This document shows, one piece after another, positions 2,851-48,486 of a stretch of 48,486 bases of DNA (the first letter of the stretch is position 1; the number at the start of each line of letters is the position of its first letter). Source of the DNA: Deltaproteobacteria bacterium (lineage in GTDB: Bacteria; Desulfobacterota; UBA8473); assembly GCA_030623035.1 (NCBI GenBank), contig JAUXFK010000001.1:1-48486 (forward strand). Reading direction: 5' to 3'. The notes below the pieces were generated by a model, which made no database searches, was not told the origin of the DNA, and worked only from the letters and a program-made list of their open reading frames with translations. A program made the position numbers and the translations under genes.

Positions 2851-5007
2851 ATGAGTACCTTAAGGGAGTTTGATATAGAGACAAAAAGAGTAAAATCGGA
2901 TTCAGAAACTACGGATATGGCTCTATTTGTCCGTACTTCAAAAGAGGATCTTTTAGGCTGGAACAGGATGCGGATTGTTGATGCTCTGGTAAGAGAGACC
3001 TATGTTGATATCGACACTGCACAAGAGATCAGTAAGGAAGTTGAAAGACAGATCATCGATTCTAAGATTGCGGTTGTTACAGCTCCTCTTATCAGGGAAT
3101 TGGTGGACGCCAAGCTCATCGAAAGGGGTTTAGAGCAGGCCAGAAAGATGCATACCCGTCTGGGGGTTCCTCTTTATGATGTGGACCAACTCATCCTCCA
3201 TCCCAACAAAGAGAATGCCAATGTACCCCATAGTCCTGAGGCGACAAACCTGACTTTAGCAGAGATGATTAAAAAGGAATACGCCCTTTTAAATGTCTTT
3301 TCACAGGAGATCGGGGATGCCCATTTACGGGGAGATATCCATATACATGATCTGGGTTTTATTGACCGCCCTTATTGTTCAGGGCAATCTCTCGAATACA
3401 TTAAAAGATTCGGCCTGAGCCTACCCAACTCCTTATCCATTGCGAAACCTGCAAAGCATCCTGAGGTCTTACTCGCCCATATGGTTAAATTCGCCGCTGC
3501 ATTACAGAGCCATTTTGCCGGTGCTATCGGGTGGGATGCCGTTAATCTATTTTTTGCCCCTTATCTTGTAGGATTGGATGATGCAGAAGTAAGGCAGTTG
3601 GCTCAAATACTTATATTTGAGTTTTCCCAGCAGGCAGTGGCCCGGGGGGGGCAGGCAATCTTTACAGATATTAACCTGTATTGGGAGGTTCCCAGCCACT
3701 TTGAAGATGTCCCTGCTATTGGACCCGGTGGAAAGTATACCGGTAAACCCTATGGATATTATCAAGAAGAGGCCCAGAGGTTTGTGTGGTTTCTCTTTGA
3801 TGTATTCAAGGAAGGGGATGGAGTTGGCAGGCCTTTCTTCTTCCCAAAACCCCTGGTTCACATTACTGAAAAGTTTTTTAAGACACCAGGCCATGAGGAC
3901 TTTCTAAACCATATATGTGACGTAGCAAGTGAAAAGGGGAACACCTACTTTGTCTTTGATAGGGGGAATACCGCCAAGATCTCGGAATGCTGCAGGTTAA
4001 GCTTTAAACTGGAGGCATCGGATCTTGAAGATGCAAAAGAGCCCTGGAAGATGCGATATACTGCCCTTCAGAATATAACCTTAAACTTACCCAGGATGGG
4101 GTACCTGGCAAAAAAGGATGACACAAAACTCTTTTCCAATATCTCCGATTTCATGGAAATGGCGGTACAGGCTCATATGCAAAAGAAGGGCTTTATAGAA
4201 AAACTACTATCCCTCAAAGAGAGAGGCCCTTTGGCATTACTAACAATGGAAAAGGATGACTCTCCGTATCTAAGGATGCATAGAGCAACCTATTTAATCG
4301 GTATGCTGGGGTTGAATGAACTGGTCGAGATACATACAGGCGAAGAACTGCACCATTCTAAGAAAGCTTTCAAGTTTGGTTTGAAGATAATTGCACATAT
4401 GAAGTTGCTGGCAGATAAGTTCGGCGAAAAACATGGGATGAGGTTCGTTCTTGAGCAATCGCCTGCAGAAAGTACATCTTATCGTTTTGCTAAACTGGAT
4501 TTAAGATACCATTCTCCACAGTCGGGTCATATAGTCAAAGGAGATATCTCAAAAGCAGAGGTGTATTATACGAATTCGACATGTTTTACTGTTTCATCCC
4601 AGATGAATCCAATCGAGCGGGTGAGAAAAGAAGGGCTTTTTCATCCCCTGATAGAGGCTGGTGCCTTAACCCATATATGGCTGGGTGAAGCAAAACCTTC
4701 TAAGGAATCCCTCGCCAATTTCGTTATAAAAACCTTTAATGGGACTTTAAACGATCAGATTGCCTTTTCTCCTGAATTTACAACCTGTATATCTTGTGGC
4801 AAGACTTCCAGGGGATTGAGCGATGAATGTAACTATTGCGGCTCCAATGAGGTAGAAGGCATTACAAGGATCACTGGTTATTTCACAAAGACCTCAAGCT
4901 GGAATAAAGGAAAGATAGGGGAACTCAACGATAGATTTAGAAACAGCGGGTTTTTAAATGATGGGGATGGGGATGTTATTAAGCTTCCACAAAAACCAAA
5001 GAACTAA
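2851..5007 (+). CDS. nrdD: Anaerobic ribonucleoside-triphosphate reductase (class III RNR)
   Basis: 718 aa. C-terminal glycyl-radical motif RITGYF preceded by a Zn-ribbon (CISCGK...CNYCGS). GGAGGA RBS upstream. An activase gene lies downstream. Confidence 0.93.
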   Translation: MSTLREFDIETKRVKSDSETTDMALFVRTSKEDLLGWNRMRIVDALVRETYVDIDTAQEISKEVERQIIDSKIAVVTAPLIRELVDAKLIERGLEQARKMHTRLGVPLYDVDQLILHPNKENANVPHSPEATNLTLAEMIKKEYALLNVFSQEIGDAHLRGDIHIHDLGFIDRPYCSGQSLEYIKRFGLSLPNSLSIAKPAKHPEVLLAHMVKFAAALQSHFAGAIGWDAVNLFFAPYLVGLDDAEVRQLAQILIFEFSQQAVARGGQAIFTDINLYWEVPSHFEDVPAIGPGGKYTGKPYGYYQEEAQRFVWFLFDVFKEGDGVGRPFFFPKPLVHITEKFFKTPGHEDFLNHICDVASEKGNTYFVFDRGNTAKISECCRLSFKLEASDLEDAKEPWKMRYTALQNITLNLPRMGYLAKKDDTKLFSNISDFMEMAVQAHMQKKGFIEKLLSLKERGPLALLTMEKDDSPYLRMHRATYLIGMLGLNELVEIHTGEELHHSKKAFKFGLKIIAHMKLLADKFGEKHGMRFVLEQSPAESTSYRFAKLDLRYHSPQSGHIVKGDISKAEVYYTNSTCFTVSSQMNPIERVRKEGLFHPLIEAGALTHIWLGEAKPSKESLANFVIKTFNGTLNDQIAFSPEFTTCISCGKTSRGLSDECNYCGSNEVEGITRITGYFTKTSSWNKGKIGELNDRFRNSGFLNDGDGDVIKLPQKPKN

Positions 5008-5041
5008 TAAAGTTAGGGAAAAGAAAGGAGGATATAAAAAT

Positions 5042-5311
5042 ATGGAAATGGTGAAGATATTCTGGAAGGCTAACTGCTCAAAATGCCCGGCAGCAAAAGA
5101 TGTAGGAAATACATTAAAAGAGGAAGGGTTCAAAGTAATAGATTATAATTTAGATACATTGGATGGACTGGCGGAAGGTGCTTATTACAGTGTTATGGCA
5201 ACGCCGACCTTGATTATAGAAGACCGGGATGAAAACTGTATCGCTGATTTTCGCGGTATAATCCCTTCAGCCAAAGAGATTCAAACACTTATAAACAAAA
5301 ATTATCGATAA
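5042..5311 (+). CDS. Small thioredoxin/glutaredoxin-fold protein (CxxC)
   Basis: Lies in ORF 4958..5311; the likely ATG at 5042 follows AAAGGAGGA. 89 aa with a CSKC redox motif near the N-terminus and ATPTLII (cis-Pro region). Confidence 0.7.
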   Translation: MEMVKIFWKANCSKCPAAKDVGNTLKEEGFKVIDYNLDTLDGLAEGAYYSVMATPTLIIEDRDENCIADFRGIIPSAKEIQTLINKNYR

Positions 5312-8605: not shown

Positions 8606-9790
8606 ATGGGGGCCGCTCTTGAGGGTGTAAGGGTATTAGATCTCAGCAAACGCTTGGCAGGCCCTTTTGCTTCTACGATCCTAAGTGATTTTGGGGCCGA
8701 GGTAATCCGGATCGCCCCCTTACACAGGGCCAAAGAAGAAGCGCTGACTGAACCGATCCTGGGTCAGCATAATTACTACTTTACTGTCAATAGAAACAAG
8801 AAGAGTATTCTCTTAAACCTAAAGGAGAAGGAAGGGCGAGATGTCTTCTACAACCTGGTTCGAAAGTCGCATGTGGTCATAGATAATTTCCGTCCGGGTG
8901 TAGTAGAGAAACTGGGTATTGATTTTCCCACTTTGAGTCTCATAAATCCGAAGATCATCTGTTGTTCGATAACAGGGTACGGTTCTACGGGGCCCTATGC
9001 TTCACGTCCCTCCTATGACGGCACGATTCAGGCCTTGAGCGGAGTGATGAGTATAACCGGAGAGCCAGGCGGAAGGCCTCTGCTGGTGGGGGTTCCCATT
9101 GCCGATCTTGCCGCTCCTTTATTTGCCGCCCATGCCATTCTGGCTGCAGTCTTTGACGCAGAAAGAACAGGAAAAGGCCAAAGAATAGAAACCTCTATGC
9201 TCGCCTCCATGATTAGCCTTCTACAAGTCCACGCTGCCAATTACTTTACAACTGGAGAGATTCCCGGACCAGCAGGCTCAGGACAGAACCTGCTCAAGGG
9301 GGTAGTCCACTATGGCGTATTTAAGACCAAGGACGGGTATATCTTCATAACTGCCCACCGAAGCTTTTATAACCTCTGCAAGGCCATAGGAAGAGAGGAT
9401 CTTATAACAGACTCTCGATTTGACACACAGGCCAAACGGAGGCAAAGGGGCGAAGAACTCAATTCTATTGCTCAGGAGGTCATAGAGACCCGGGAAACCA
9501 AAAAGTGGTTTGAGATATTTGACCAAACGGATGTCCCTTATGCCCCAATCAATACCGTAGACGAGGTCTTTAAGGATCCTCAAGTCGTTCACTTGGGTGT
9601 AATAGCCACTCAGGAAAAGCTAGGCCAACGAATCAACATCATCAGGAATCCTGTAAGCATGCCCGGAGTGAAGAAGGAATTGGAACCGGCAGCCCTGCCA
9701 GGAGAGAACACAGAGGAGATCCTGACAAAGATTCTCGGTTATAGTGAGGCAACGATTGATGAGCTGAGGAAAAAGGAGATTGTCTGCTAG
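8606..9790 (+). CDS. Family III CoA-transferase (CaiB/BaiF type)
   Basis: 394 aa. N-terminal GVRVLDLS...AGPF and the VVIDNFRPG motif. Paralogous to 18880..20067. Confidence 0.88.
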   Translation: MGAALEGVRVLDLSKRLAGPFASTILSDFGAEVIRIAPLHRAKEEALTEPILGQHNYYFTVNRNKKSILLNLKEKEGRDVFYNLVRKSHVVIDNFRPGVVEKLGIDFPTLSLINPKIICCSITGYGSTGPYASRPSYDGTIQALSGVMSITGEPGGRPLLVGVPIADLAAPLFAAHAILAAVFDAERTGKGQRIETSMLASMISLLQVHAANYFTTGEIPGPAGSGQNLLKGVVHYGVFKTKDGYIFITAHRSFYNLCKAIGREDLITDSRFDTQAKRRQRGEELNSIAQEVIETRETKKWFEIFDQTDVPYAPINTVDEVFKDPQVVHLGVIATQEKLGQRINIIRNPVSMPGVKKELEPAALPGENTEEILTKILGYSEATIDELRKKEIVC

Positions 9791-9913
9791 CTTTCCAAAT
9801 GCCCCTTTTTTTACCAATCGTGTCATTAAATTTGTACAGAAATCTTCCTTGGGTTATAGATATTCGGGAGCTTCGAAAAATTATCCCAAGTCGTTTAGAA
9901 TACATCTTTAACC

Positions 9914-10238
9914 GTAACTACTCAGGTTGTCAGGTTCAAGCCTGCCCTGGCGCTGTTTACTATGCATTCCCATCATTACTATGCTGACAATATCCCAGGT
10001 GCTCTACAATGAGCCAGGGAAGCCAGGTCTGGGCCAGGGGTTCACAGTTCACGGTTGGGAGCATCCAGTGCAACAAAGAGTTCACTCTGGACTTCCGTGC
10101 AAGACAGCGTTGCGTATCACAAGAACTGCCTGCCTGTAGTGGACCCAGACAGGGATGAACTCCGCATTCGTCTCGGAATCAAACCCCTCTTTCATCAGTT
10201 TAACCTTGAACTCCGGAACTTTGAACCTGAGTAGTTAC
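9914..10238 (+). mobile_element. MITE type C, 325 bp, perfect 15-bp terminal inverted repeats (TIRs) and an 8-bp target-site duplication (TSD)
   Basis: GTAACTACTCAGGTT (9914..9928) is the exact reverse complement of AACCTGAGTAGTTAC (10224..10238). CTTTAACC flanks both ends directly (9906..9913 and 10239..10246). There is no convincing ORF. It is GC-richer than its surroundings. Confidence 0.75.
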
Positions 10239-10465
10239 CTTTAACCCATCTAAGGATCTGTTCCAGGAATTTTCTTAAACTCGTCCAGAGGGTCTAATAC
10301 CAATTTGCAAACTAATTAATATGATACAAGAGAGGATTCTGAGGCGGTAACCGTATTTACTCTTAGTTGTTAAGGAGGTTTTAAGGATGTATAAAGGAAT
10401 GCGCAAAAGATATTATCCGATAATTGAAAAACCATTGATGCTGGAAAACTTGGGCAGGTGCGCGC

Positions 10466-11746
10466 TTGTCTATTAGAAATAATAAAAAAGAACCGGAGTT
10501 TTTCTATGGCTGGGTCATCTTAGGAGCCTGCTTTGCCACGACAACCATGGTGGGCGGATTATACTATTCATTTGGGATATTTTTTACACCATTATTAGAG
10601 GAATTTGGCTGGAGCCGGGCTTTGGTCTCATCAGTAGGCACGGTTAATTTGCTCGCATTTGCTTTTTCTTCTATGTTGTTTGGCAGATTGATTGACCGAT
10701 ATGGCCCCAGGATAATCCTTGCATGCAGTGCTGTTATCATCGGTCTTGGATATGCCCTTTGCAGCCAGGTGAACTCCATCTTTCAATTATACCTGTTCTA
10801 TATTATAGCCTCTCTAGGATCAGGGCCTACATGGGTATTGCCCACTTCCATAGTGCAGCGATGGTTTGTAAAGAGGAGAGGTTTTACCCTCGCGCTGGTT
10901 ACTACCGGCATCGGTTTTGGAGCCTTGATCTTTTCCCCGATATTGAACCATATTATCTATACATATGGTTGGCGTGTAAGCTATATAATCCTGGGTATTC
11001 TTACTTGGCTTATCCTGACTGGGGCGTCTGTTGTTATGGTGGCTGATCCTGAAGAAAAGGGGATGAAGCCTTATGGCGAGGAAGAGTTAGTGGCCGATAT
11101 GGCCAGCAGCAAAACGACAGATTATCAATCAACAGAGTCTGTGTCCATGGTGTCAAAAACCGTGGAATGGGGGGTCGATGAAGCGATAAGAACAAAGGCT
11201 TTCTGGGGTCTCGTTGTATTGTATATGTTTGGCCTTTTTCCAATATATATGCTTGCAATGCATATCGTTCCTCACGCAATTGATATGGGGATTTCAGAGG
11301 GAGTGGCCGCTGGAGCCTTAGGCCTTATCGGTGCTACCAGTATCGCCGGCCGGCTGCTGGGGGGTGCTATTGCAGAAAGGCTTGGTTGGACGAAAGGCCT
11401 GGCATTATCCTGTTTTCTCACCAGCCTATCGGTATTTTGGCTCATCGCAATCCACAATGCCTGGATGCTCTACGTGTTTGTTGTTACATATGGCCTTTTC
11501 TATGGATCAAGGGTACCGCAGTTTCCTGGTATCGTTGGCTTTTTTTTTGGAAGCACCTCTCTTGCTTCGCTTATTGGCCTTTGCCATGGCCTATCAATCC
11601 TTGGCAGTGCCGTGGCCCCTGTTGTCGCCGGATTGATTTTTGATAAAACAGGGAGCTATACTGTAGCCTTTTTAATAGCGGGCATCGCTTCTTTCATTGC
11701 TGGAGTTCTGGCACTGTTGCTGAAGCCACCGAAGAAAAAGAGTTGA
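10466..11746 (+). CDS. MFS transporter, oxalate/formate-antiporter-like
   Basis: 426 aa with about 12 predicted hydrophobic helices and a central hydrophilic loop. FGRLIDRYGPR MFS loop motif. TTG start is the most upstream in-frame start. Confidence 0.85.
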   Translation: MSIRNNKKEPEFFYGWVILGACFATTTMVGGLYYSFGIFFTPLLEEFGWSRALVSSVGTVNLLAFAFSSMLFGRLIDRYGPRIILACSAVIIGLGYALCSQVNSIFQLYLFYIIASLGSGPTWVLPTSIVQRWFVKRRGFTLALVTTGIGFGALIFSPILNHIIYTYGWRVSYIILGILTWLILTGASVVMVADPEEKGMKPYGEEELVADMASSKTTDYQSTESVSMVSKTVEWGVDEAIRTKAFWGLVVLYMFGLFPIYMLAMHIVPHAIDMGISEGVAAGALGLIGATSIAGRLLGGAIAERLGWTKGLALSCFLTSLSVFWLIAIHNAWMLYVFVVTYGLFYGSRVPQFPGIVGFFFGSTSLASLIGLCHGLSILGSAVAPVVAGLIFDKTGSYTVAFLIAGIASFIAGVLALLLKPPKKKS

Positions 11747-23135: not shown

Positions 23136-24638
23136 ATGTTGAATATGAAGAGAGGAATGCGAATCTGTTTAATTTTTGTCATTATTTTTTGTCTGCCTCT
23201 ATCCGGCAAATTATATGCTGCTGCTTATCTTTATATATCAAACAGCGGTGAGGATACTCTAACCGTAATAAGCAATCTTGAAAACGAGGTGATTGATACG
23301 GTTGAGGTCGGTAGGGGGCCGATGGGGTTGGCAGTTACCCCTGAGGGAGATTATGTATATGTGGCGAATAGTATGGATGGAACCGTATCCGTAATTCGCA
23401 CAACGGACAACTCTGTCATTGAAACAGTCGAAGTCGGTGCTTCTCCAATGGGGGTAGTTATCTCCCCAGAGGGAGATTATGTATATGTGGCGAATAGCGC
23501 AGATGGAACCGTATCCGTAATCCGCACAACGGACAACTCTGTCACTGAGACTGTTGAAGTCGGCAATGGCCCATGGGATGTGGCCGTCACTTCTGGTGGC
23601 ATTTATGTATTTGTGACAAATAAAACGGATGGCACAGTGTCTATGATCCGCATTGAAGATAATACCATTGTCAATACGATTGAAGTAGGGAGCAATCCAC
23701 TTGGAATCACAGTCGGTCTGGATGGCGATTATATTTATGTGGCGAATAACTCAGATAATACAGTTTCACTAATCAGTACGACTTACTATACTGTCATAGA
23801 GACGATAGCTGTTGGCAACGGCCCATGGGGGGTGGCTGCAACAAATGACAAAGAATATATTTATGTAGTAAACAACGAGGATAACACAGTGTCGAAGATA
23901 AGGATTTTCGATTATTCTACGACTCTTTTTGCGGTAGGTAACGCACCGGTAGGTCTTGGCAGTTTTTTAGGCGGTCGGTCACCAGAACCCCCCAGTGACC
24001 TTGAGGCAACGGAAAAATCCTATAAAAGGATAGACCTTTCCTGGACTGACAACTCTTCTGATGAATTTGGGTTCAAAATCGAAAGAAAAGCAGGATCAAA
24101 TGGGGAATACATTCGGATAGCGGCTTTAGATGAGAATGTCACCACATATTCTGACACAGGACTCAGTTATTATAGGACCTATTATTATCGTATAACCTCA
24201 TACAATGACGTAGCCGATTCAGATTATACAAACGAAGCATACGCAACTACCGAAGATTACGAGACAGAGTGTTTTTTCGTCACAGTGGCTTACGGTTCAC
24301 CTTTTAACAGACATATCCGAATAATTCGTGGTTTCCGTGACAGGTACTTGATGTCAAACGCACTGGGAAAGGCCTTCGTTGATATCTATTATGCCTTAAG
24401 CCCAAAGGCAGCCCACTTCATCAGCAGGCATGATTCAATGCGTACCTCGCTTCAGTTCGCCCTTATCCCCTTAGTTTGGCTTTGTTGGCTGTCTCTAAAT
24501 ATAAACCAGACATCCACTATTGCATTTATCTTATTGTTGCTTGTACTGTCTTATGCTGCTTTTTTAAAGAATTTGTATCATTTTAAAACTATCAGCAAGC
24601 TTCAACGACGGTCAAATTTTAATGCGTGTAATGTTTGA
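23136..24638 (+). CDS. Secreted YVTN-type beta-propeller repeat protein with Fn3 domain and a C-terminal CF..AYGSP / transmembrane anchor domain
   Basis: Signal peptide MKRGMRICLIFVIIFCLPLSG. About 6 repeats of ~42 aa (YVYVANSxDGTVSVI...VEVG). Fn3-like segment (PSDLEATEK...YYYRITSYN). C-terminal ECFFVTVAYGSP...FRDRYL...YYALSP plus a hydrophobic helix. Confidence 0.8.
   Translation: MLNMKRGMRICLIFVIIFCLPLSGKLYAAAYLYISNSGEDTLTVISNLENEVIDTVEVGRGPMGLAVTPEGDYVYVANSMDGTVSVIRTTDNSVIETVEVGASPMGVVISPEGDYVYVANSADGTVSVIRTTDNSVTETVEVGNGPWDVAVTSGGIYVFVTNKTDGTVSMIRIEDNTIVNTIEVGSNPLGITVGLDGDYIYVANNSDNTVSLISTTYYTVIETIAVGNGPWGVAATNDKEYIYVVNNEDNTVSKIRIFDYSTTLFAVGNAPVGLGSFLGGRSPEPPSDLEATEKSYKRIDLSWTDNSSDEFGFKIERKAGSNGEYIRIAALDENVTTYSDTGLSYYRTYYYRITSYNDVADSDYTNEAYATTEDYETECFFVTVAYGSPFNRHIRIIRGFRDRYLMSNALGKAFVDIYYALSPKAAHFISRHDSMRTSLQFALIPLVWLCWLSLNINQTSTIAFILLLLVLSYAAFLKNLYHFKTISKLQRRSNFNACNV
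23343..23594 (+). repeat. Near-identical tandem duplication, 2 x 126 bp, inside the propeller CDS
   Basis: GAGGGAGATTATGTATATGTGGCGAATAG...ACAACGGACAACTCTGTCA recurs with a 126-nt period (42 aa, one blade) and only a few substitutions. Confidence 0.85.
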
Positions 24639-24690
24639 GCGTCTAACTGAGCGTTAAGAAAGAAGAGGGGGGAAAAGACCCATTTATGGA
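24575..24690 (-). mobile_element. Truncated MITE type B fragment (GTATCATTTTA end plus internal ~80 bp)
   Basis: Begins GTATCATTTTA like the 25346 end of the full copy. 24591..24670 is ~94% identical to 25377..25456. No second terminus is present. Confidence 0.6.
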
Positions 24691-24717
24691 TGTAAACTTG
24701 TTAAATGGGAGGTGGCC

Positions 24718-25345: not shown

Positions 25346-25615
25346 GTATCATTTTAGCGTTATGAAATAGAAGGCTATCATCAAGCTTCAACGACGGTCA
25401 AATTTTAATGCGTGGATTGTCTGAGCGTCTAACTGAGCGTTAAGAAAGAACAGGGGATAAACCCACCTATTATATCTGGAATAGGTCATAATGGAGCTAC
25501 TGAATTGAATAGTTATATACTGTTCTTTCTTTACGCTTACTTGGATGCGAGTTTTACACGGATTAAAATTTGATTGCCGCTTTTTGCAACTCTTTTCAAA
25601 AAGCTAAACTGTTAC
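25346..25615 (-). mobile_element. MITE type B, long form (270 bp) with a perfect 8-bp TSD
   Basis: Termini are GTATCATTTTAGC... and ...GCTAAACTGTTAC (11/13 inverted match). AATTACCT is present at 25338..25345 and 25616..25623. Long imperfect internal palindrome (25384..25456 versus 25520..25590). Confidence 0.8.
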
Positions 25616-28720: not shown

Positions 28721-28838
28721 GTAATTGTTTAACTATCTTAAGTAGCTATTGAGATTTTATGATTTGAATAATCTTTTCCTCAGGATTTGAGTTATTTTGT
28801 TAAAGACCATCCAAATCATTATTTGGCTAAACAGTTAC
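28721..28838 (-). mobile_element. MITE type A (118 bp), no recognisable TSD
   Basis: Termini GTAATTGTTTAAC ... GGCTAAACAGTTAC. The interior is collinear (reverse orientation) with 29605..29753. Flanks TTCTATTC and GAATTTTT do not match. Confidence 0.65.
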
Positions 28839-28863: not shown

Positions 28864-29433
28864 CTATTTAAAGAGTAACAATTCAACCATTTCACAGATA
28901 ATATGACCGACTGTAATATGGACTTCCTGTATGCGAGGAGTGCTGTTAGAGGGTACATTTAATGAGATATCTACAATATTGGCAATCTTTCCCCCGTCTT
29001 TACCGGTCATTCCGACTGTCTTTATACCCAATTTCTTCCCGGTATGTAATGCCTTGATGACATTTTCAGAATCTCCGCTTGTGCTGAGCCCAAAAGCGAC
29101 ATCGCCCTCTTTACCCAGAGCCTTTATCTGTTTGGAAAATATATGAGAGAAATCCGAGTCATTGGATATACTTGTAATTACAGATGTATCTGTAGTCAAC
29201 GCAATGGCAGGTAGAGGAGGCCTATCGATTACAAAACGGTTTATAAACTCAGCAGCAATATGCTGGGCATCAGCAGCACTTCCCCCGTTGCCAAACAGGA
29301 TAATCTTGTTTCCCTGGTTTATAGCATCAGTAACTGTTTCCACTGTCTTGATGATCTCGTCGATATTTTTTTTTGCAAACATTACTTTTAAATCAGCGCT
29401 TTCCAAAAAACTCTGGATAATTTTATCCTTCAT
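28864..29433 (-). CDS. gmhA: SIS-domain phosphoheptose isomerase (GmhA/DiaA family)
   Basis: 189 aa. GNGGSAADAQH and STSGDSENV motifs. Confidence 0.85.
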   Translation of the reverse strand: MKDKIIQSFLESADLKVMFAKKNIDEIIKTVETVTDAINQGNKIILFGNGGSAADAQHIAAEFINRFVIDRPPLPAIALTTDTSVITSISNDSDFSHIFSKQIKALGKEGDVAFGLSTSGDSENVIKALHTGKKLGIKTVGMTGKDGGKIANIVDISLNVPSNSTPRIQEVHITVGHIICEMVELLLFK

Positions 29434-29604
29434 ATATGTCTCTCTGTCATGCCTTTATGAAACAAAACGATTTTTTTGAGATTAAACCGTATAGACCTTC
29501 CATGTCAAGCAAATTTAGCCCTATTAAAAAATGGATCCAATAGAAAAATTTATCCACAATATCAAATTGTTGGTCTTCCCCATCTTGACAAAGCAAAAGA
29601 TAAG

Positions 29605-29753
29605 ATAACTGTTTCGCCAGATAATGATTTGTATGGTCTTTGACGAACATTTTTGAGTTATTTTGTTGAAGATTCAAGGTGACTCAAATCGTGAGGAAAA
29701 GACGATTCAAATCATAAAATCTCGTTAGCTCCTTAAGATGGCTAAACAATCAC
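29605..29753 (+). mobile_element. MITE type A (149 bp) with a perfect 8-bp TSD
   Basis: ATAACTGTTTCGCC...GGCTAAACAATCAC termini. AAGATAAG lies directly on both sides (29597..29604 and 29754..29761). Confidence 0.85.
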
Positions 29754-29804: not shown

Positions 29805-29883
29805 GTAACAGTTTAGCTTTTTGAAATTTGATTGCCGTTGAAGCTTGGCGAGTGCTTTTTGTTTCATAAGGCTAAAATAGTAC
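29805..29883 (+). mobile_element. MITE type B, short deletion derivative (79 bp) with a perfect 8-bp TSD
   Basis: GTAACAGTTTAGCTTTTTGAAA...GGCTAAAATAGTAC. AAATATTC is present at 29797..29804 and 29884..29891. Confidence 0.85.
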
Positions 29884-30220
29884 AAATATTCTTATCGCAA
29901 CTCTAAAACTCCCTCGTGCACTTTCCTCTTTTGTGGAGGGGCACTAACTAATCATGATATCTATGGAAATTTTAATTTGATGGTTAAAAAAGGTTTGCAA
30001 TTTCTGTGTAATTAAGTTATAAGCTAAGCTTGTTAATTATTGGGTTATTGCTCAAATCCTTTTTTGCTTTGCCCAGATAAATTTCTTGATAAATCCATTG
30101 TTCGTTCCAGTCGTTTTCAAAACTCTCTCTGTGGGCTCAAGGAATTGAGATTTATCTAAGAGAAAGTGTTTTGATGATTTTGTATAATAATTTTTGTTTG
30201 GGTAAAATGGCCTTTTATGG

Positions 30221-31336
30221 ATGGATACGAAAAAGTTTAATAATAAGGTAGACCACAATCTGAATTTGCAGGGTGAATTAGGTGTTTTGCGGGAAAAAAT
30301 AGACCAGATCGATACAGAAATCCTCGATTTGCTCAATGAAAGAGCAAAAAAAGCAATCAAAATCGCAAAAACCAAAATCGCAAATAAGATGGAATTTTAT
30401 GCACCAGATAGAGAGCTCAAGATTTATGAGAGACTTGTAAATATAAACAAAGGTCCTTTTCCAGACAGAGCGATTAAGCCTGTCTTCAAAGAGATAATCT
30501 CTGCTTCTTTATCCCTTGAGAAACCTATTCATGTTGCATACTTAGGTCCAAAAGCAACATTTACCCACCTTGCGAGTATCAGTCATTTTGGTCAGTCATC
30601 CAATTTTGTTCAGAAAAGAAATATCCCTGAAATTTTCTCTGAAGTGGAAAGGGACAGGGTCGATTTTGGAGTTGTCCCTATAGAGAATTCGACAGAAGGG
30701 GTGGTCAGCAACACCCTGGACATGTTTATAGAATCAAACCTGAAAATATGCGCAGAAATTTTACTAGAGATATCTCATCACCTCATGTCAAAGACAGGCA
30801 AGATGGAGGACATTGAGAAAGTATACTCCCATCCTCATGCGATCGCCCAATGTAGAAACTGGCTGGATCGTAACCTTCCAAATATACCTATTATCGATGT
30901 AGCAAGCACCGCTTTAGCAGCTAAGAGTGCATCAGATGACCATTCAGTAGCTGCAATTGCCAGCGAGTATGCTGCATCTTGCTATGATTTAAAAATAGTA
31001 AAGAGAAAGACAGAGGATAATATCAACAATTTCACCAGATTTTTAGTGATTGGCAAAAGAGAGCCTGAAAAAAGCGGTAATGATAAAATATCGATTATGT
31101 TTTCCATTAAGGATGAGGTCGGGATTTTATATAGAATGCTTGAACCCTTTGCAAAAAACAATGTGAATCTAACGAAGATTGAATCTAGACCTCTCAAGAA
31201 AAAAGCCTGGGAATATATGTTCTTCTTGGACTTAGAGGGTCACATATCTGATAAAAATGTGAAAAAGGCATTAGAAGAATTGGATAAAAAATCTCTGTTT
31301 TTAAAGGTGTTGGGTTCCTATCCAAGGAGCAATTGA
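30221..31336 (+). CDS. pheA: Bifunctional chorismate mutase / prephenate dehydratase (P-protein)
   Basis: 371 aa. N-terminal CM helix (LREKIDQIDTEILDLLNERA), PDT domain (VAYLGPKATFTH, ENSTEGVV) and a C-terminal ACT domain. Confidence 0.9.
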   Translation: MDTKKFNNKVDHNLNLQGELGVLREKIDQIDTEILDLLNERAKKAIKIAKTKIANKMEFYAPDRELKIYERLVNINKGPFPDRAIKPVFKEIISASLSLEKPIHVAYLGPKATFTHLASISHFGQSSNFVQKRNIPEIFSEVERDRVDFGVVPIENSTEGVVSNTLDMFIESNLKICAEILLEISHHLMSKTGKMEDIEKVYSHPHAIAQCRNWLDRNLPNIPIIDVASTALAAKSASDDHSVAAIASEYAASCYDLKIVKRKTEDNINNFTRFLVIGKREPEKSGNDKISIMFSIKDEVGILYRMLEPFAKNNVNLTKIESRPLKKKAWEYMFFLDLEGHISDKNVKKALEELDKKSLFLKVLGSYPRSN

Positions 31337-34500: not shown

Positions 34501-36279
34501 ATGGAGGAAAAAATCGATAACAAAACAATAAATGATGAGGAGCCTAATCCAAATAGCGAGGAGGAGGATGCATTCTCAACGTTTAATAGCGAGGAAGATG
34601 ATAAAGAAATAGAGATGGAGCAGTTCTATGAAAGCAGTTTGAGTAAGTTGCAAGAAGGAGAACTGGTAAACGGAACGGTCGTTCAGATTACCAAAGACCA
34701 TATAATGATAGATGTGGGTTATAAGTCTGAAGGACAGGTATCCGCCTCGGAATTCAAGGATGAAAATGGCGAGATTAACATCGTGGTAGGGGATGAAGTA
34801 GAGGTCTTGTTCGAGAGAAGAGAGAATGAAGACGGGATTGTAGTTCTATCCAAAGATAAAGCGGATAGTCTGAAAGTATGGAATGAGATCAGTAGAACAT
34901 ACAATGAGGATGATGTAATTGAGGGTACGATCGTCTCCAGGATAAAAGGTGGGTTAGCTGTTGATATTGGAGTTAGGGCATTTTTGCCCGGCTCCCAGGT
35001 TGACATACGTCCAGTTAGGAATTTAGACGACTTAATCGGAAATACGTTTAAGTTTAAAATATTAAAATTCAATAAAAAGCAAAGGAATATCGTTCTTTCA
35101 AGGAGAGCTATCTTTGAAAAAGAAAGAGAAGATTTGAGAGAGGAGACCCTAAAGACCCTGGAAGAGGGACAAATCGTTGAAGGCCTTGTAAAGAATATTA
35201 CAGATTATGGTGTCTTTGTCGATTTAGGAGGGGTTGACGGGCTGTTACACATTACGGATTTATCCTGGGGCAGGGTGAAACACCCCCAGGATATATGCTC
35301 AATTGGAGATAGAATAAAGGTTAAAGTCATAAAGTATGATAAGGAAAACCAAAGGGTGTCTTTGGGGTTGAAGCAGATCACAGATGACCCATGGAGCAAT
35401 ACCGAGGAAAAGTACCCAATCGGTTCGAGGGTTACGGGAAAGGTTGTGAGTCTCACGGATTATGGTGCCTTTATTCGATTAGAAGAGGGGATTGAAGGTT
35501 TAATCCACATATCTGAAATGTCATGGACCCAAAAAATCAGGCACCCATCAAAGATTGTGTCTTTGGATGACACCGTTGAAGCTGTAGTCTTGGATATTGA
35601 TACATCTAAAAAGAGGATATCACTGGGTTTAAAACAGGTAGAATCGAACCCCTGGGATATCGTTAAAGAAAAATATCCGGTAGGTACAAGGATCGAAGGT
35701 ATAATCAAGAACGTGATGGATTTTGGTCTTTTTATAGGTATAGAGGAAGGTATCGACGGTTTGGTTCATGTATCGGATATATCCTGGAAGCAGAAGATCA
35801 AAAACCCATCGGAATTATATCAAAAAGGCCAGCGCATAGAGGCTGTTGTTTTGAATATTGACCAGGAAAATGAAAGGTTTTCCCTGGGCATTAAACAGCT
35901 TGAGGCAGACCCCTGGGATACGATTTCTGAAAGGTATAAAGTGGGTCAGGTTGTATTTGGAAGTGTTACCAATGTTACAGATTTTGGTATATTTGTTGAA
36001 TTAGAAGAGGGGATCGAAGGTTTGGTCCATGTCTCAGAGATTCGTAAGGAAAAAGTAGAAAGTCCCGCTGAATTTGCAAAAGTAGGAGAAAAAATAAGTG
36101 CTTTAATAATAAATATTTTGGAGAAAGAAAGGAAGATTGGGCTAAGCATTAAGCAGTTGGATGAAACTTCTGAAAAAGTAGCGATTCAAAAAATATTGAA
36201 TAATCAAAACAGTGCTACCTCCAATTTGGGAGAATTGATTAAAGAAGAACTGGAACAAAAAGCAGAACGCGAAACATAA
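34501..36279 (+). CDS. rpsA: 30S ribosomal protein S1
   Basis: 592 aa with six S1 domains (repeated G.V..I.DFG.FV.L..G.EGL.H.SE). Conserved cmk-rpsA synteny. Confidence 0.93.
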   Translation: MEEKIDNKTINDEEPNPNSEEEDAFSTFNSEEDDKEIEMEQFYESSLSKLQEGELVNGTVVQITKDHIMIDVGYKSEGQVSASEFKDENGEINIVVGDEVEVLFERRENEDGIVVLSKDKADSLKVWNEISRTYNEDDVIEGTIVSRIKGGLAVDIGVRAFLPGSQVDIRPVRNLDDLIGNTFKFKILKFNKKQRNIVLSRRAIFEKEREDLREETLKTLEEGQIVEGLVKNITDYGVFVDLGGVDGLLHITDLSWGRVKHPQDICSIGDRIKVKVIKYDKENQRVSLGLKQITDDPWSNTEEKYPIGSRVTGKVVSLTDYGAFIRLEEGIEGLIHISEMSWTQKIRHPSKIVSLDDTVEAVVLDIDTSKKRISLGLKQVESNPWDIVKEKYPVGTRIEGIIKNVMDFGLFIGIEEGIDGLVHVSDISWKQKIKNPSELYQKGQRIEAVVLNIDQENERFSLGIKQLEADPWDTISERYKVGQVVFGSVTNVTDFGIFVELEEGIEGLVHVSEIRKEKVESPAEFAKVGEKISALIINILEKERKIGLSIKQLDETSEKVAIQKILNNQNSATSNLGELIKEELEQKAERET

Positions 36280-39615: not shown

Positions 39616-39811
39616 TTTTCATCTCCTTTGATGATTATAAAGTTAACTCTAAAGAATAGACTCCCTATTTATGGTAGGTTACAGATTTGACAGTTAGATA
39701 GGGCATAGATTTTCTTGGAATTGGCCATTGATCTTTTTCTTTTATTTTATTAAATCCTTTAATTTCAATTGGTTAGTATTCAGAGATATAGTTATAATCA
39801 TTTCTCCTTTT

Positions 39812-39881
39812 GTAACTGTTTAACCAAATAATGATTTGGATGGTCTTTGACGAGCATTTTTGAGTTATTTTGTTAAAGATG
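39812..39881 (+). mobile_element. MITE type A, left-end fragment
   Basis: GTAACTGTTTAACCAAATAATGATTTGGATGGTCTTTGACGAGCATTTTTGAGTTATTTTGTTAAAGAT is collinear with the first ~70 nt of 29605..29753. The right terminus is absent. Confidence 0.6.
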
Positions 39882-39984
39882 TCTTTCCCTGTTTGTAGAC
39901 ATCTGTTGAATTCGTTGGCGATATGTATGCTTCATCCAAGGCGACATAGAGCTTGCCTCGCCTGAACGAGAGCGATAGCGGGAG

Positions 39985-40081
39985 AAGGCCTGGACTTCCG
40001 TGCAAGACCGCCTGGCGTAGCATTCAGTACGATCGTGCTGGAGCAGGTGTTAACCCTGGAACTTCGATCCTGATTAGTTAC
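39985..40081 (+). mobile_element. MITE type C, right-hand partial copy
   Basis: Shares CTGGACTTCCGTGCAAGAC (19/19), GTTAACCCTGGAACT and the terminus CCTGATTAGTTAC with 10087..10238. No TSD or left TIR is present. Confidence 0.55.
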
Positions 40082-45213: not shown

Positions 45214-45285
45214 GTAACAGTTTAGCTTTTTGAAATTTTAGTCACTAAAGCGGCAATCACATGATAACCCATGCAAAACTCGCGA
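45214..45285 (+). mobile_element. MITE type B, left-end fragment
   Basis: GTAACAGTTTAGCTTTTTGAAA...AAAGCGGCAATCA...AAAACTCGC is collinear with the 25615-side ~72 nt of the long copy. No right terminus was found. Confidence 0.55.
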
Positions 45286-46086: not shown

Positions 46087-46160
46087 GTAACAGTTTAGCT
46101 TTTTTAAATTTTAGTTGAAGCTGTTTTGATGCCGTCTATTTCATAAATCTAAAATGATAC
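46087..46160 (+). mobile_element. MITE type B, short derivative (74 bp) with a perfect 8-bp TSD
   Basis: GTAACAGTTTAGCTTTTTTAAA...CTAAAATGATAC. TATAATAC is present at 46079..46086 and 46161..46168. Confidence 0.85.
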
Positions 46161-46184: not shown

Positions 46185-46274
46185 GTAACTGTTTAGCCAG
46201 ATAATGACTTGGATAGTCAAAGACAATTCAAATAATAAAATCTTGAAAGCTTCTTAAGATGGCTAAACAATTAC
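46185..46274 (+). mobile_element. MITE type A (90 bp, internally deleted) with a 7/8 TSD
   Basis: GTAACTGTTTAGCC...GGCTAAACAATTAC (13/14 TIR). Flanks are TGTATCTT and TGTATATT. Confidence 0.8.
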
Positions 46275-47120: not shown

Positions 47121-48347
47121 TTAAAAGAAGTATGCAACAGAACCCGATATAGAGAACCCTGAAACATCGATCAAACTATCGTTTGCCCTTACTCCTCCTA
47201 TGTTTGGCGGGGTATAGTCGAATTCAATACCTCGATATAAAAAGTCAAAGCCGAGCTTGAACCGGGATTTCAGAATATACACGCCACAACCGGTCTCCCA
47301 ACCGAGACCATCGTCAAATTCGCCGGGGATTTCGTCCCAATCGAAGGTTCCGTAAACCGCTCCCCCTTTCAAATAAGGGAAAATCGAGTCCGATACATCG
47401 ATGGTTAATTCCGGGCCTATTGAAAGAAACATTGCATTGATCTCATCTGCGAATGCATATTCAAAGCTGCCGTACATATTAAAGTCCTTAAAAACCCTGA
47501 TGCTAGAGACAAGTGCAGCCTGGGCCGTGTCACCTGTAAACGACCATGTCATGGTTCCGGATACTCGCTCTTCGGTTATTTCGAAGTCACTTGCAGCGCT
47601 TGAAGTAAAAGCACCGGCCTTCAGATACATGGAAAACAAACGATCTTTTTGCAAATCTCGTTGTTTCAAGATGCTTTTTATCGGCGTTTTTTCAACCGGC
47701 GAGATTTCCCCCTTTTCCGCTTCAGTAAGCTCTAGAGTATGTTGTGTTTTTTCGTTATATGCTTTGGCCTCAACTCTTTTATCTAAAGGCAGCAGATCTA
47801 TTTTCTTTTCCCTTTGTTTTTTACCGGCTTTAATCGATAGAGGTTCCTTTCTTTCACGTTCAGCAGAGACTTTGCGTGAATCGGTTTCGGTTTGCAAATA
47901 TTTATCTGTCTCAGTAGTGTCACGAGGGCTTGCTTCGGTTGTTTCTTGCATAGCAATTATGGAATAGTAAGATATAATCTTTTGTTGTTTCAATCTTATT
48001 GCATTTTGTTTTGCTTCTTTTTTCGAGTCAAACCTGCCAATATAAACCCTATACCATTTCCCCTTACCTGCTACGGATTCATACTGATGAAAGGCTTGCA
48101 AACCGCTCTTTTCTAATTTAGACACCTCAGATTCGGCATTTTTGTGATATTTATGCGAACTCACATGAATCGAATAAAAACTCCTGGGTATGTCTGCAGA
48201 AAATATGGAACCGGGGATTACGTGAAGTGTAATAATAATTAACAATACAATTGAGATTCTAAGGATATGTGTGATCTGAAACATGGAAATCAAATTATAG
48301 TTCGTATCCATCCACATATAGTCCTTTTGCAAAACAGGTGTGATCAT
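47121..48347 (-). CDS. SPOR-domain protein fused to a C-terminal beta-barrel-like domain (start uncertain: 48347, 48317 or 48284)
   Basis: Signal-like ILRISIVLLIIITLHVIPGSIFSA. SPOR-like YSIHVSSHKY...WYRVYIGRFDSKKEAKQ. Charged K/E linker. The C-terminus has alternating hydrophobic beta-strand patterns and ends in ...GSVAYFF (terminal Phe, typical of outer-membrane proteins). Confidence 0.7.
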   Translation of the reverse strand: MITPVLQKDYMWMDTNYNLISMFQITHILRISIVLLIIITLHVIPGSIFSADIPRSFYSIHVSSHKYHKNAESEVSKLEKSGLQAFHQYESVAGKGKWYRVYIGRFDSKKEAKQNAIRLKQQKIISYYSIIAMQETTEASPRDTTETDKYLQTETDSRKVSAERERKEPLSIKAGKKQREKKIDLLPLDKRVEAKAYNEKTQHTLELTEAEKGEISPVEKTPIKSILKQRDLQKDRLFSMYLKAGAFTSSAASDFEITEERVSGTMTWSFTGDTAQAALVSSIRVFKDFNMYGSFEYAFADEINAMFLSIGPELTIDVSDSIFPYLKGGAVYGTFDWDEIPGEFDDGLGWETGCGVYILKSRFKLGFDFLYRGIEFDYTPPNIGGVRANDSLIDVSGFSISGSVAYFF

Positions 48348-48365: not shown

Positions 48366-48486
48366 TTTAGTGCCCATCCATAAATGGCCCTTTTGCCCAA
48401 TCTCTGTGTCAGGCTCAGATTTTAATCCTCGAAATATCTCAATATATTCCTGTGGTTAAAATCTTCGCCTTCCTTGACCTTGAACA
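48366..48486 (+). repeat. Dispersed repeat family D, copy 2 (runs into the window edge)
   Basis: Same core as 2547..2595 with one mismatch. Carries an extra ~40 nt before CCTTCCTTGACCTTGAACA. Preceded by GTAACTTTCATTATTTAGTGCC at ~48353. Confidence 0.6.

Follow-up and report, generated by a model that had tools for sequence, protein, structure and literature searches.

We analysed a 48,486-nucleotide stretch of DNA (the window; contig JAUXFK010000001.1 of assembly GCA_030623035.1, labelled Deltaproteobacteria bacterium) with a focus on a short repeated element, type C, that lies at positions 9914-10238 between a CoA-transferase gene and an MFS transporter gene, the two co-oriented. We refer to this element as W1, to a second copy in the window as W2, and to the loci of collected relatives by L-numbers. 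A preliminary description of the window had classed W1 as a miniature inverted-repeat transposable element (MITE) of 325 bp with perfect 15-bp terminal inverted repeats (TIRs) and a perfect 8-bp target-site duplication (TSD), and had proposed that it carries a short internal module under selection. The MITE assignment holds: W1 has TIRs and a TSD that match at 15/15 and 8/8 positions, it is small, it belongs to a large family, and it is without an intact open reading frame (ORF), the ORFs reported at 9799..9987 and 9927..10139 being present as described.

The left copy of the TSD (CTTTAACC, 9906-9913) is identical to the right copy (CTTTAACC, 10239-10246), and 8-bp TSDs recur across the family. 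The left TIR (GTAACTACTCAGGTT, 9914-9928, forward strand) is complementary to the right TIR (10224-10238, reverse strand) over its whole length, and its tip, GTAACTACTCAG, matches the TIRs of the insertion sequence ISDge4. Five sites in the window match the TIR with at most three mismatches (0.94 expected), including the degenerate right end of W2 at 40067-40081. The preliminary description rightly noted sub-terminal TTGAAC/GTTCAA repeats, which form GGTTCAN heptamer arrays of opposite orientation at the two ends. On the left, the first part of the array (GTCAGGTTCAA, 9929-9939, forward strand), identified by alignment to L007, L008, L012, L016 and L011, is severed from the remainder (GTTCAC AGTTCAC GGTTGGG, 10040-10060, forward strand) by a nested repeat of about 100 bp, which we call N (GCCTGCCCTGGCGC...CCAGGTCTGGGCCAGGG, 9940-10039, forward strand). 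The remainder was placed by alignment, and Tandem Repeats Finder (TRF) shows GGTTCAC arrays in full-length copies. The right array (TAACCTTGAACTCCGGAACTTTG, 10201-10223, forward strand) was identified by alignment and TRF.

Between the arrays lie two fragments of a PF05635 pseudogene, both on the reverse strand. The first (10061-10125, reverse complement FL*YATLSCTEVQSELFVALD) corresponds to approximately residues 70-92 and was identified by tblastn; this central segment is identical to L016 at 56/65 positions (86%). The second (10154-10200, reverse complement MKEGFDSETNAEFI) was placed by alignment at approximately residues 52-66, and an old internal deletion fused it to the start-codon region. 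The two are separated by a nested 28-bp GC hairpin (CCTGCCTG-loop-CAGACAGG, 10126-10153, forward strand) that is absent from sister copies. The interior was rightly described as about 50% GC, the element having a GC content of 50.8% whereas the window has 41.8% and a type A MITE 27%. The G/C-rich complementary segments reported in it are also present, but they are part of nested foreign insertions rather than of the element proper, and the ~100-bp repeat supplies most of them.

The parent cassette and its four-helix-bundle gene

The preliminary description had singled out a 19-mer, CTGGACTTCCGTGCAAGAC, as shared with the second copy 30 kb away, and it does occur at exactly two sites in the window, 10087 and 39990, where none is expected. 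A scan of the 19-mer against one genome per species yielded 17 loci from metagenome-assembled genomes labelled Desulfobacterales, Syntrophobacterales, Thermodesulfobacteriota, Nitrospirales, Thermodesulfovibrionia and Pseudomonadota, many of them at contig ends, as is typical of repeats. The aligned copies share this TIR at both ends. Four of them (L007, L008, L012 and L016) are intact, with lengths of 467-474 bp, and the others are shorter internal-deletion forms. The intact copies are flanked by 8-bp TSDs (8/8 in L008, L012 and L016; 7/8 in L007) and share one layout, consisting of a 15-bp TIR, a short GGTTCAN array, a 130-aa gene on the opposite strand, an inverted heptamer array and the other TIR. 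Each contains a single ORF, the 130-aa gene, on the strand opposite to that read in the preliminary description, and no transposase. These full-length parents fit the definition of a mobile insertion cassette (MIC), in which TIRs of insertion-sequence type surround a passenger gene.

The 130-aa ORF matches TIGR02436 'four helix bundle protein' (1.9e-27), the Avd-like family PF05635 '23S rRNA-intervening sequence protein' (4.5e-28) and the Xanthomonas protein XCC0516 (PDB 2GSC, 8.7e-10). Differences among the four intact copies are mostly synonymous, with dN/dS values of 0.11-0.22 in the five diverged pairs and 0.55 in the near-identical pair L007/L016; as judged from these substitutions, the intact copies are under purifying selection. 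The protein has 5345 homologues in metagenomes at E<=1e-5, and the best 120 of these are 87-100% identical to it and nearly all exactly 130 aa long. At the DNA level, a plasmid collection contained nothing matching the full-length element.

A tblastn search with the intact L007 protein matched window positions 10128-10033 to residues 66-94 (E = 8e-7), and therefore the 19-mer and the segment following it are a fragment of a four-helix-bundle pseudogene. The 19-mer lies at 10087-10105, and its reverse complement codes for RSCTEVQ, which lies in the conserved helix-3 motif of the gene. (R)SCTEVQ lies within AKRSCTEVQSEL, which aligns with ARGSLSELDTQV of 2GSC, the hallmark motif of the family. 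The 19-mer is thus inherited coding sequence for the most conserved motif of the family, A-K-R-S-C-T-E-V-Q-S-E-L. The reverse complement of the gene remnant in W1 reads ...LSCTEVQSELFVALD, with an internal stop inside.

The 205-bp deletion form L011, and likewise L009 and L006, align with W1 and have both of its deletion joints; the two inserts of W1, missing from these three relatives, are 9940-10039 (100 bp) and 10126-10153 (28 bp). W1 descends from the 205-bp form, which has both ends and roughly codons 52-92 and does not consistently keep an in-frame mini-ORF. It later gained the 100-bp and 28-bp nested insertions and a stop codon, and it now codes for nothing.

W2 (39881-40081, forward strand) is truncated on the left by the end of a type A MITE (39809-39880) and ends in the degenerate right TIR. 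It retains approximately residues 70-106 of the gene in two pieces, matched by the intact protein at 39877-39960 and 39987-40019 (tblastn, E = 1e-5) and split by an insert of about 33 bp directly before the 19-mer (39990-40008). W1 and W2 share a stretch of 33 nt at 88% identity. Two independent internal deletions, in L029 and L088, end exactly at ...GAGTTCGCT^, right before the 19-mer, and the W2 insert (approximately 39957-39989) lies at the same point, which may be a hotspot of breakage or insertion.

Both W1 and W2 are dead remains of a single cassette family. We consider it very probable that W1 is a non-autonomous, decayed deletion derivative (MITE) of the ~467-474-bp, TIR-bounded four-helix-bundle cassette.

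The family sampled by its ends, its mobilisation and alternative readings

Copies found through the 19-mer cannot be used to test its conservation because they were selected for it. We therefore sampled the family by its ends, using the TIR pattern GTAACTACTCAGGTTNNNAGKTYC on metagenome contigs. This yielded at least 120 loci, so that with the 17 genome loci the MITE family is clearly multi-copy; the pattern was not found in viral contigs. In the family as a whole, TIR pairs define 73 elements of 68-474 bp, and among the matches listed the set found by ends only comprises 64 distinct elements of 68-438 bp; the counts that follow refer to these. An 8-bp TSD is a property of the family, with flanks matching at 7/8 positions or better in 35 of the 73 members, while control 8-mers taken 12 bp further out reached 6/8 in 0/73. 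The target sites are 75% A+T.

The ends of the family point to a candidate mobiliser. Type C elements have the tip GTAACTACTCAG, or GTAACTGCTCAG in several relatives. ISDge4 of Deinococcus geothermalis, a member of the ISBst12 group of the IS66 family that has been shown to transpose, has TIRs GTGACTACTCAGCA and GTAACTGCTCAGCA, an 8-bp direct repeat and a single transposase of 449 aa (PMC12898284). More generally, IS66 inverted repeats start with GTAA and are accompanied by 8-bp direct repeats (PMC11946415). W1 has the same features: a GTAA start, an ISDge4-like GT(A/G)ACT(A/G)CTCAG end and 8-bp repeats. The match in TIR tip and TSD length makes an IS66-type transposase of the ISBst12 group, acting in trans, the likely mobiliser, by analogy with ISDge4. 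Type C elements would then have moved by cut-or-copy DDE transposition, creating 8-bp duplications in A+T-rich DNA, with the enzyme supplied in trans. The heptamer arrays would be functional cis-elements of the four-helix-bundle module, perhaps as sites bound by its protein or as arms of a long stem in the transcript.

Within the collected loci, no TIR pairs 0.6-6 kb apart with a TSD were found, unpaired TIR ends lead into host DNA, all-against-all clustering of ORFs returned host families only, and IS66 motifs matched nothing. Two long TIR pairs, in L038 and L087, were considered as autonomous elements and rejected, since they enclose only host genes.

Several points weigh against our account of W1. 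The empty site was not recovered, as both metagenome contigs with the neighbouring gene also carry W1. The 0.83 Mb of collected loci yielded no autonomous element bounded by these TIRs, and Pfam screens of 139 large ORFs showed no transposase among the commonest families listed, a result in which families present once would not show. For ISBst12, the link consists of the TSD length and 12 terminal bases as given in a single paper. The invariance of the 19-mer in intact copies arises by construction, these copies having been found through it, and the ends-only census is a sample of at least 120 loci.

The preliminary description read the internal sequence differently, proposing that the 19-mer and its neighbouring segment are a selected cis-acting module, namely a sub-terminal site for a transposase or host factor, a promoter directed outward or an RNA with a defined structure. 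The 19-mer and the shared segment are real, and two copies that otherwise diverge agree in the 19-mer at 19/19 positions; in a stretch of 65 nt at 86% identity, however, 19 consecutive matches are not unusual. Three deletion classes retain the same central ~95 nt, but these classes were ascertained by the 19-mer itself. The preliminary description had named conservation in further copies as its own test, and in the ends-only set the 19-mer is found in 0/64 elements, even with four mismatches allowed. When these elements are mapped on a full-length copy, retention of the parent sequence follows a U-shaped curve, with the ends kept in 48-64 of 64, a steady fall inward and zero at the 19-mer, which is the least kept segment of the parent. 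In intact copies the 19-mer sits 170-185 bp from the end, within the coding region. The three proposed roles found no support either. The whole window has no Rfam match at gathering thresholds, and 9700-10500 gives only noise at E<=10 (the best match, DnaX, scores 17.5 bits against a cut-off of 35 bits). RNAalifold finds no covariation in the ~105 nt that copies have in common (a term of -0.11 kcal/mol), and no promoter or terminator signal inside the element rises above the shuffled background. The fold of the whole element is somewhat better than that of shuffled sequences (z = -2.0 and -3.1), which is explained by the terminal stem of TIRs and heptamers together with the nested palindromes. 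A selected cis-module is thus highly improbable, and what stands of it is a coding relic of the PF05635 gene.

The retained gene fragment might instead give rise to an antisense or decoy RNA that targets, in trans, intact four-helix-bundle genes elsewhere in the genome, and MITE copies with the central segment would persist because they regulate the family. The genes on either side of W1 are co-oriented, so that read-through RNA would be antisense to four-helix-bundle mRNA, and the central segment of W1 is 86% identical to intact copies. This segment is, however, broken by the hairpin insert, most family members are without it, and tblastn found no intact four-helix-bundle gene in the window that could serve as a target, so we regard this role as very unlikely. 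A further possibility concerns the mechanism of movement: the four-helix-bundle protein could itself mobilise the element by acting on the heptamer arrays, with no need of a separate transposase and perhaps together with a polymerase from the host or a retroelement, and the GTAAC tips and 8-bp TSD would belong to that mechanism. Intact elements occur in great numbers and are conserved although the PF05635 gene is all they carry; in distant phyla, where a GTAAC tip is not visible, the gene again has heptamer arrays beside it (see below); and the ORF of intervening sequences has been proposed as a mobility component by Ralph and McClelland, in the account given in PMC4990558. A helical bundle of 130 aa has, however, no known catalytic motif, and TIRs with a TSD of fixed length are the signature of a DDE transposase. 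In addition, the TIR tip matches an IS66-family element with its own transposase (PMC12898284), and most MITE copies are without the gene and so moved in trans anyway. We consider this mechanism improbable and favour descent of W1 from the cassette with mobilisation in trans.

Nested insertions and other repeats

The ~100-bp repeat has conserved ends (GCCYGCCCTGGYGCGAC and YCAGGTCTGGGCCAGGG), a constant length and a variable middle of about 65 nt, and head-to-tail dimers share a junction. There are 17 copies in the window and the collected loci, the latter having been fetched for other reasons: one at window 9940-10039 and others in L021 (a tandem pair), L097 (five, with two tandem pairs), L115, L120, L126 (two), L131, L132 and L134. 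In W1, L115 and the group L126/L131/L132/L134, the repeat interrupts the GGTTCAN array at one end or the other of a type C element. Several copies are in the same GGTTCAA^GGTT context, and one is inside CTAAAGTGC repeats. The repeat has no Rfam match (E-value mode, 9700-10500 and four repeat-rich loci). This result, together with a period of about 92 nt, no direct-repeat structure and no attC core, led us to reject identification as a CRISPR, an integron attC site, a tRNA-like RNA or a REPIN.

The GC hairpin (CCTGCCTG...CAGACAGG, 20-28 nt) is found inside type C elements in 7/7 copies in the 0.83 Mb collected, at five or more different insertion positions (window 10126-10153, L014, L043 (two), L072 and L076 (two)). 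Other tiny palindromes, GCCCCGTATCAAGTACGGGGC, CCGCCTCGGCGGA and CGCCTGCCCGCCGGACGGCAGGCGG, are inserted in single copies. Such tiny palindromic inserts resemble the 'small dispersed repeats' of cyanobacteria. In L007, a 180-aa ORF (4733-5275) adjoins the type C insertion; from a reading of its sequence, we take it to be possibly a REP-associated tyrosine transposase, which might bear on the small palindromic inserts.

The window also contains AT-rich MITEs of two other types. Type A MITEs lie at 28721-28838, 29603-29753, 39809-39880 and 46185-46274, and type B ends at 25603-25615, 29805-29817, 45214-45226 and 46087-46099. Both types also begin with GTAAC (GTAAYTGTTTARC and GTAACAGTTTAGC; 10 sites compared with 0.38 expected), the same tip as in type C and IS66-type ends, and they may use enzymes related to that of type C. 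A SIS-domain gene (28864-29433) lies between two type A copies in inverted orientation, an arrangement that resembles a composite element.

A further dispersed repeat, ...CATCCATAAATGGCCCTTTTGCCCAA..., occurs at 2535-2620 and 48367-48486 in both orientations, the copies being 87-93% identical over a distance of 46 kb, and related arms lie at 24664-24692, 30198-30232 and 48301-48328. Two internally repetitive regions are coding rather than mobile DNA: 23217-23893 consists of five to six 126-nt in-frame protein repeats inside the ORF 23136-24638, and 35437-36041 of three 261-nt in-frame protein repeats inside the ORF 34501-36279.

Heptamer arrays around PF05635 genes and comparison with known systems

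We scanned 13 further PF05635 loci from Bacteroidota, Cyanobacteria and Xanthomonadales with TRF. In 13/13, arrays with a period of 7 (8 in L143) abut the gene on both sides, and only about three comparable arrays occur elsewhere in the 45 kb of these loci. The repeated unit is GGTTYAA on a Riemerella plasmid (L140), GGGAATC in Xanthomonas, Dokdonella and Dyella (L150, L151 and L154), and varied among the Cyanobacteria: AGTAGGG (L141), GGGAAAA (L142) and TCAGGAG (L148) in Nostoc, GGGAAAA in Geminocystis (L144), GGGTGTA in Calothrix (L145), AAAAGCT in Pseudanabaena (L147) and the octamer AGGAGATA in Picosynechococcus (L143). Upstream and downstream units were read separately in Calothrix L146 (TTAGCTG and AGCTAAA) and Nostoc L149 (ACTTCAA and CTTCTGC). 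The paired arrays are mostly inverted; those of L147 are direct, and the two sides of L149 differ. GTAAC tips and TSDs were not visible in the 13 loci.

PF05635 genes are also found wedged inside operons among L140-L156: between accB and accC throughout Xanthomonadales (including L150, L151 and L154), between cas10 and cmr3 (L143), between cas6 and cas4 (L147) and between nrdB and nrdA (L141). The Xanthomonadales loci include orthologues of the crystallised XCC0516.

Related proteins tend to have related heptamers. The L146 and L147 proteins are 74% identical and share AGCTAAA, and the Xanthomonadales proteins are 63-71% identical and share GGGAATC. The type C and Riemerella proteins are only 39% identical, yet they share GGTTCAA-like units. 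This suggests that the heptamer sequence may be under constraint, with shared descent as an alternative. In the 23S intervening sequence of Coxiella, three or four GACAGAT heptamers lie just upstream of the S23p ORF, and the origin of rRNA intervening sequences has been called unclear (PMC4990558). No earlier description of heptamer arrays or of TIRs and TSDs around PF05635 genes was found in the literature searched, whose scope excluded subscription journals. The recurrence of the arrays points to the PF05635 gene and its heptamer arrays as a conserved mobile module.

To our knowledge, in about 30 years no function has been found for the 23S intervening-sequence protein (S23p, PF05635), a relative of the diversity-generating retroelement protein Avd. 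W1 alone is an ordinary dead MITE, and it is its ancestry that carries the interest: an S23p-type gene in a cassette with TIRs, an 8-bp TSD and deletion derivatives is direct sequence evidence that the module transposes, and bears on the origin of rRNA intervening sequences. The recurring arrays give rise to the idea that the PF05635 protein binds its own heptamers, and IS66/ISBst12 is a candidate mobiliser family. We tentatively extend this to the suggestion, which we rate as possible rather than likely, that PF05635 genes and their flanking inverted heptamer arrays form one widespread mobile module whose protein recognises its own arrays as DNA or as a stem in the transcript. If so, S23p intervening sequences, type C cassettes and MITEs, the copies wedged between accB and accC, cas10 and cmr3, and nrdB and nrdA, and possibly the STRR arrays of cyanobacteria would all be products of the module, and type C would be the first lineage to display its transposition directly, through the TIR tip, the 8-bp TSD and dozens of deletion derivatives.

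Type C elements resemble MITEs of the ISBst12 group of IS66 in being short and non-coding, in starting with GTAACT(A/G)CTCAG, in having an 8-bp TSD and in showing many internal-deletion variants. They differ in that their interior derives from a passenger gene and heptamers rather than from a transposase gene, and no cognate transposase-bearing element was recovered. In MICs, such as MIC231 of Bacillus cereus, TIRs of insertion-sequence type bracket a passenger gene other than a transposase, and the cassettes are presumably moved in trans. Type C differs in having one constant passenger, the small PF05635 gene, which comes with inverted heptamer arrays of its own, and the mobilisation of type C in trans is proposed by analogy. 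Cyanobacteria reportedly contain STRR heptamer repeats (attributed to Mazel, 1990) and small dispersed repeats that are said to be nested in MITEs (attributed to Elhai, 2008). Similarly, heptamers flank cyanobacterial PF05635 genes and tiny GC hairpins are nested in type C copies, whereas the host here is Desulfobacterota-like; a link between STRR repeats and PF05635 was not found in the literature searched.

The protein has the same fold and belongs to the same PF05635-like family as Avd of diversity-generating retroelements (PMC10053308). Unlike those retroelements, the elements examined are 0.47 kb long, have one ORF and lie next to unrelated host genes, with no reverse transcriptase or template/variable repeat pair adjoining them. 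In S23p-type 23S intervening sequences, such as those of Coxiella and Leptospira, a PF05635 ORF of about 120-130 aa likewise lies within inverted repeats and adjoins tandem heptamers, the whole being about 430-470 nt long and the ORF prone to decay and deletion (PMC4990558). This combination of ORF, inverted repeats and heptamers is complete in the type C parents and only a remnant in W1. In contrast to S23p intervening sequences, W1 and its relatives lie in ordinary intergenic DNA and are marked by an 8-bp TSD and a defined TIR tip; no rRNA was found in the window with Rfam, so W1 is not in an rRNA gene. The heptamers also differ, being GGTTCAN in type C and GACAGAT in Coxiella. Type C elements therefore combine known kinds of element, the MITE and the mobile insertion cassette, the latter with ends of IS66 type, and their cargo ties them to the S23p intervening sequences.

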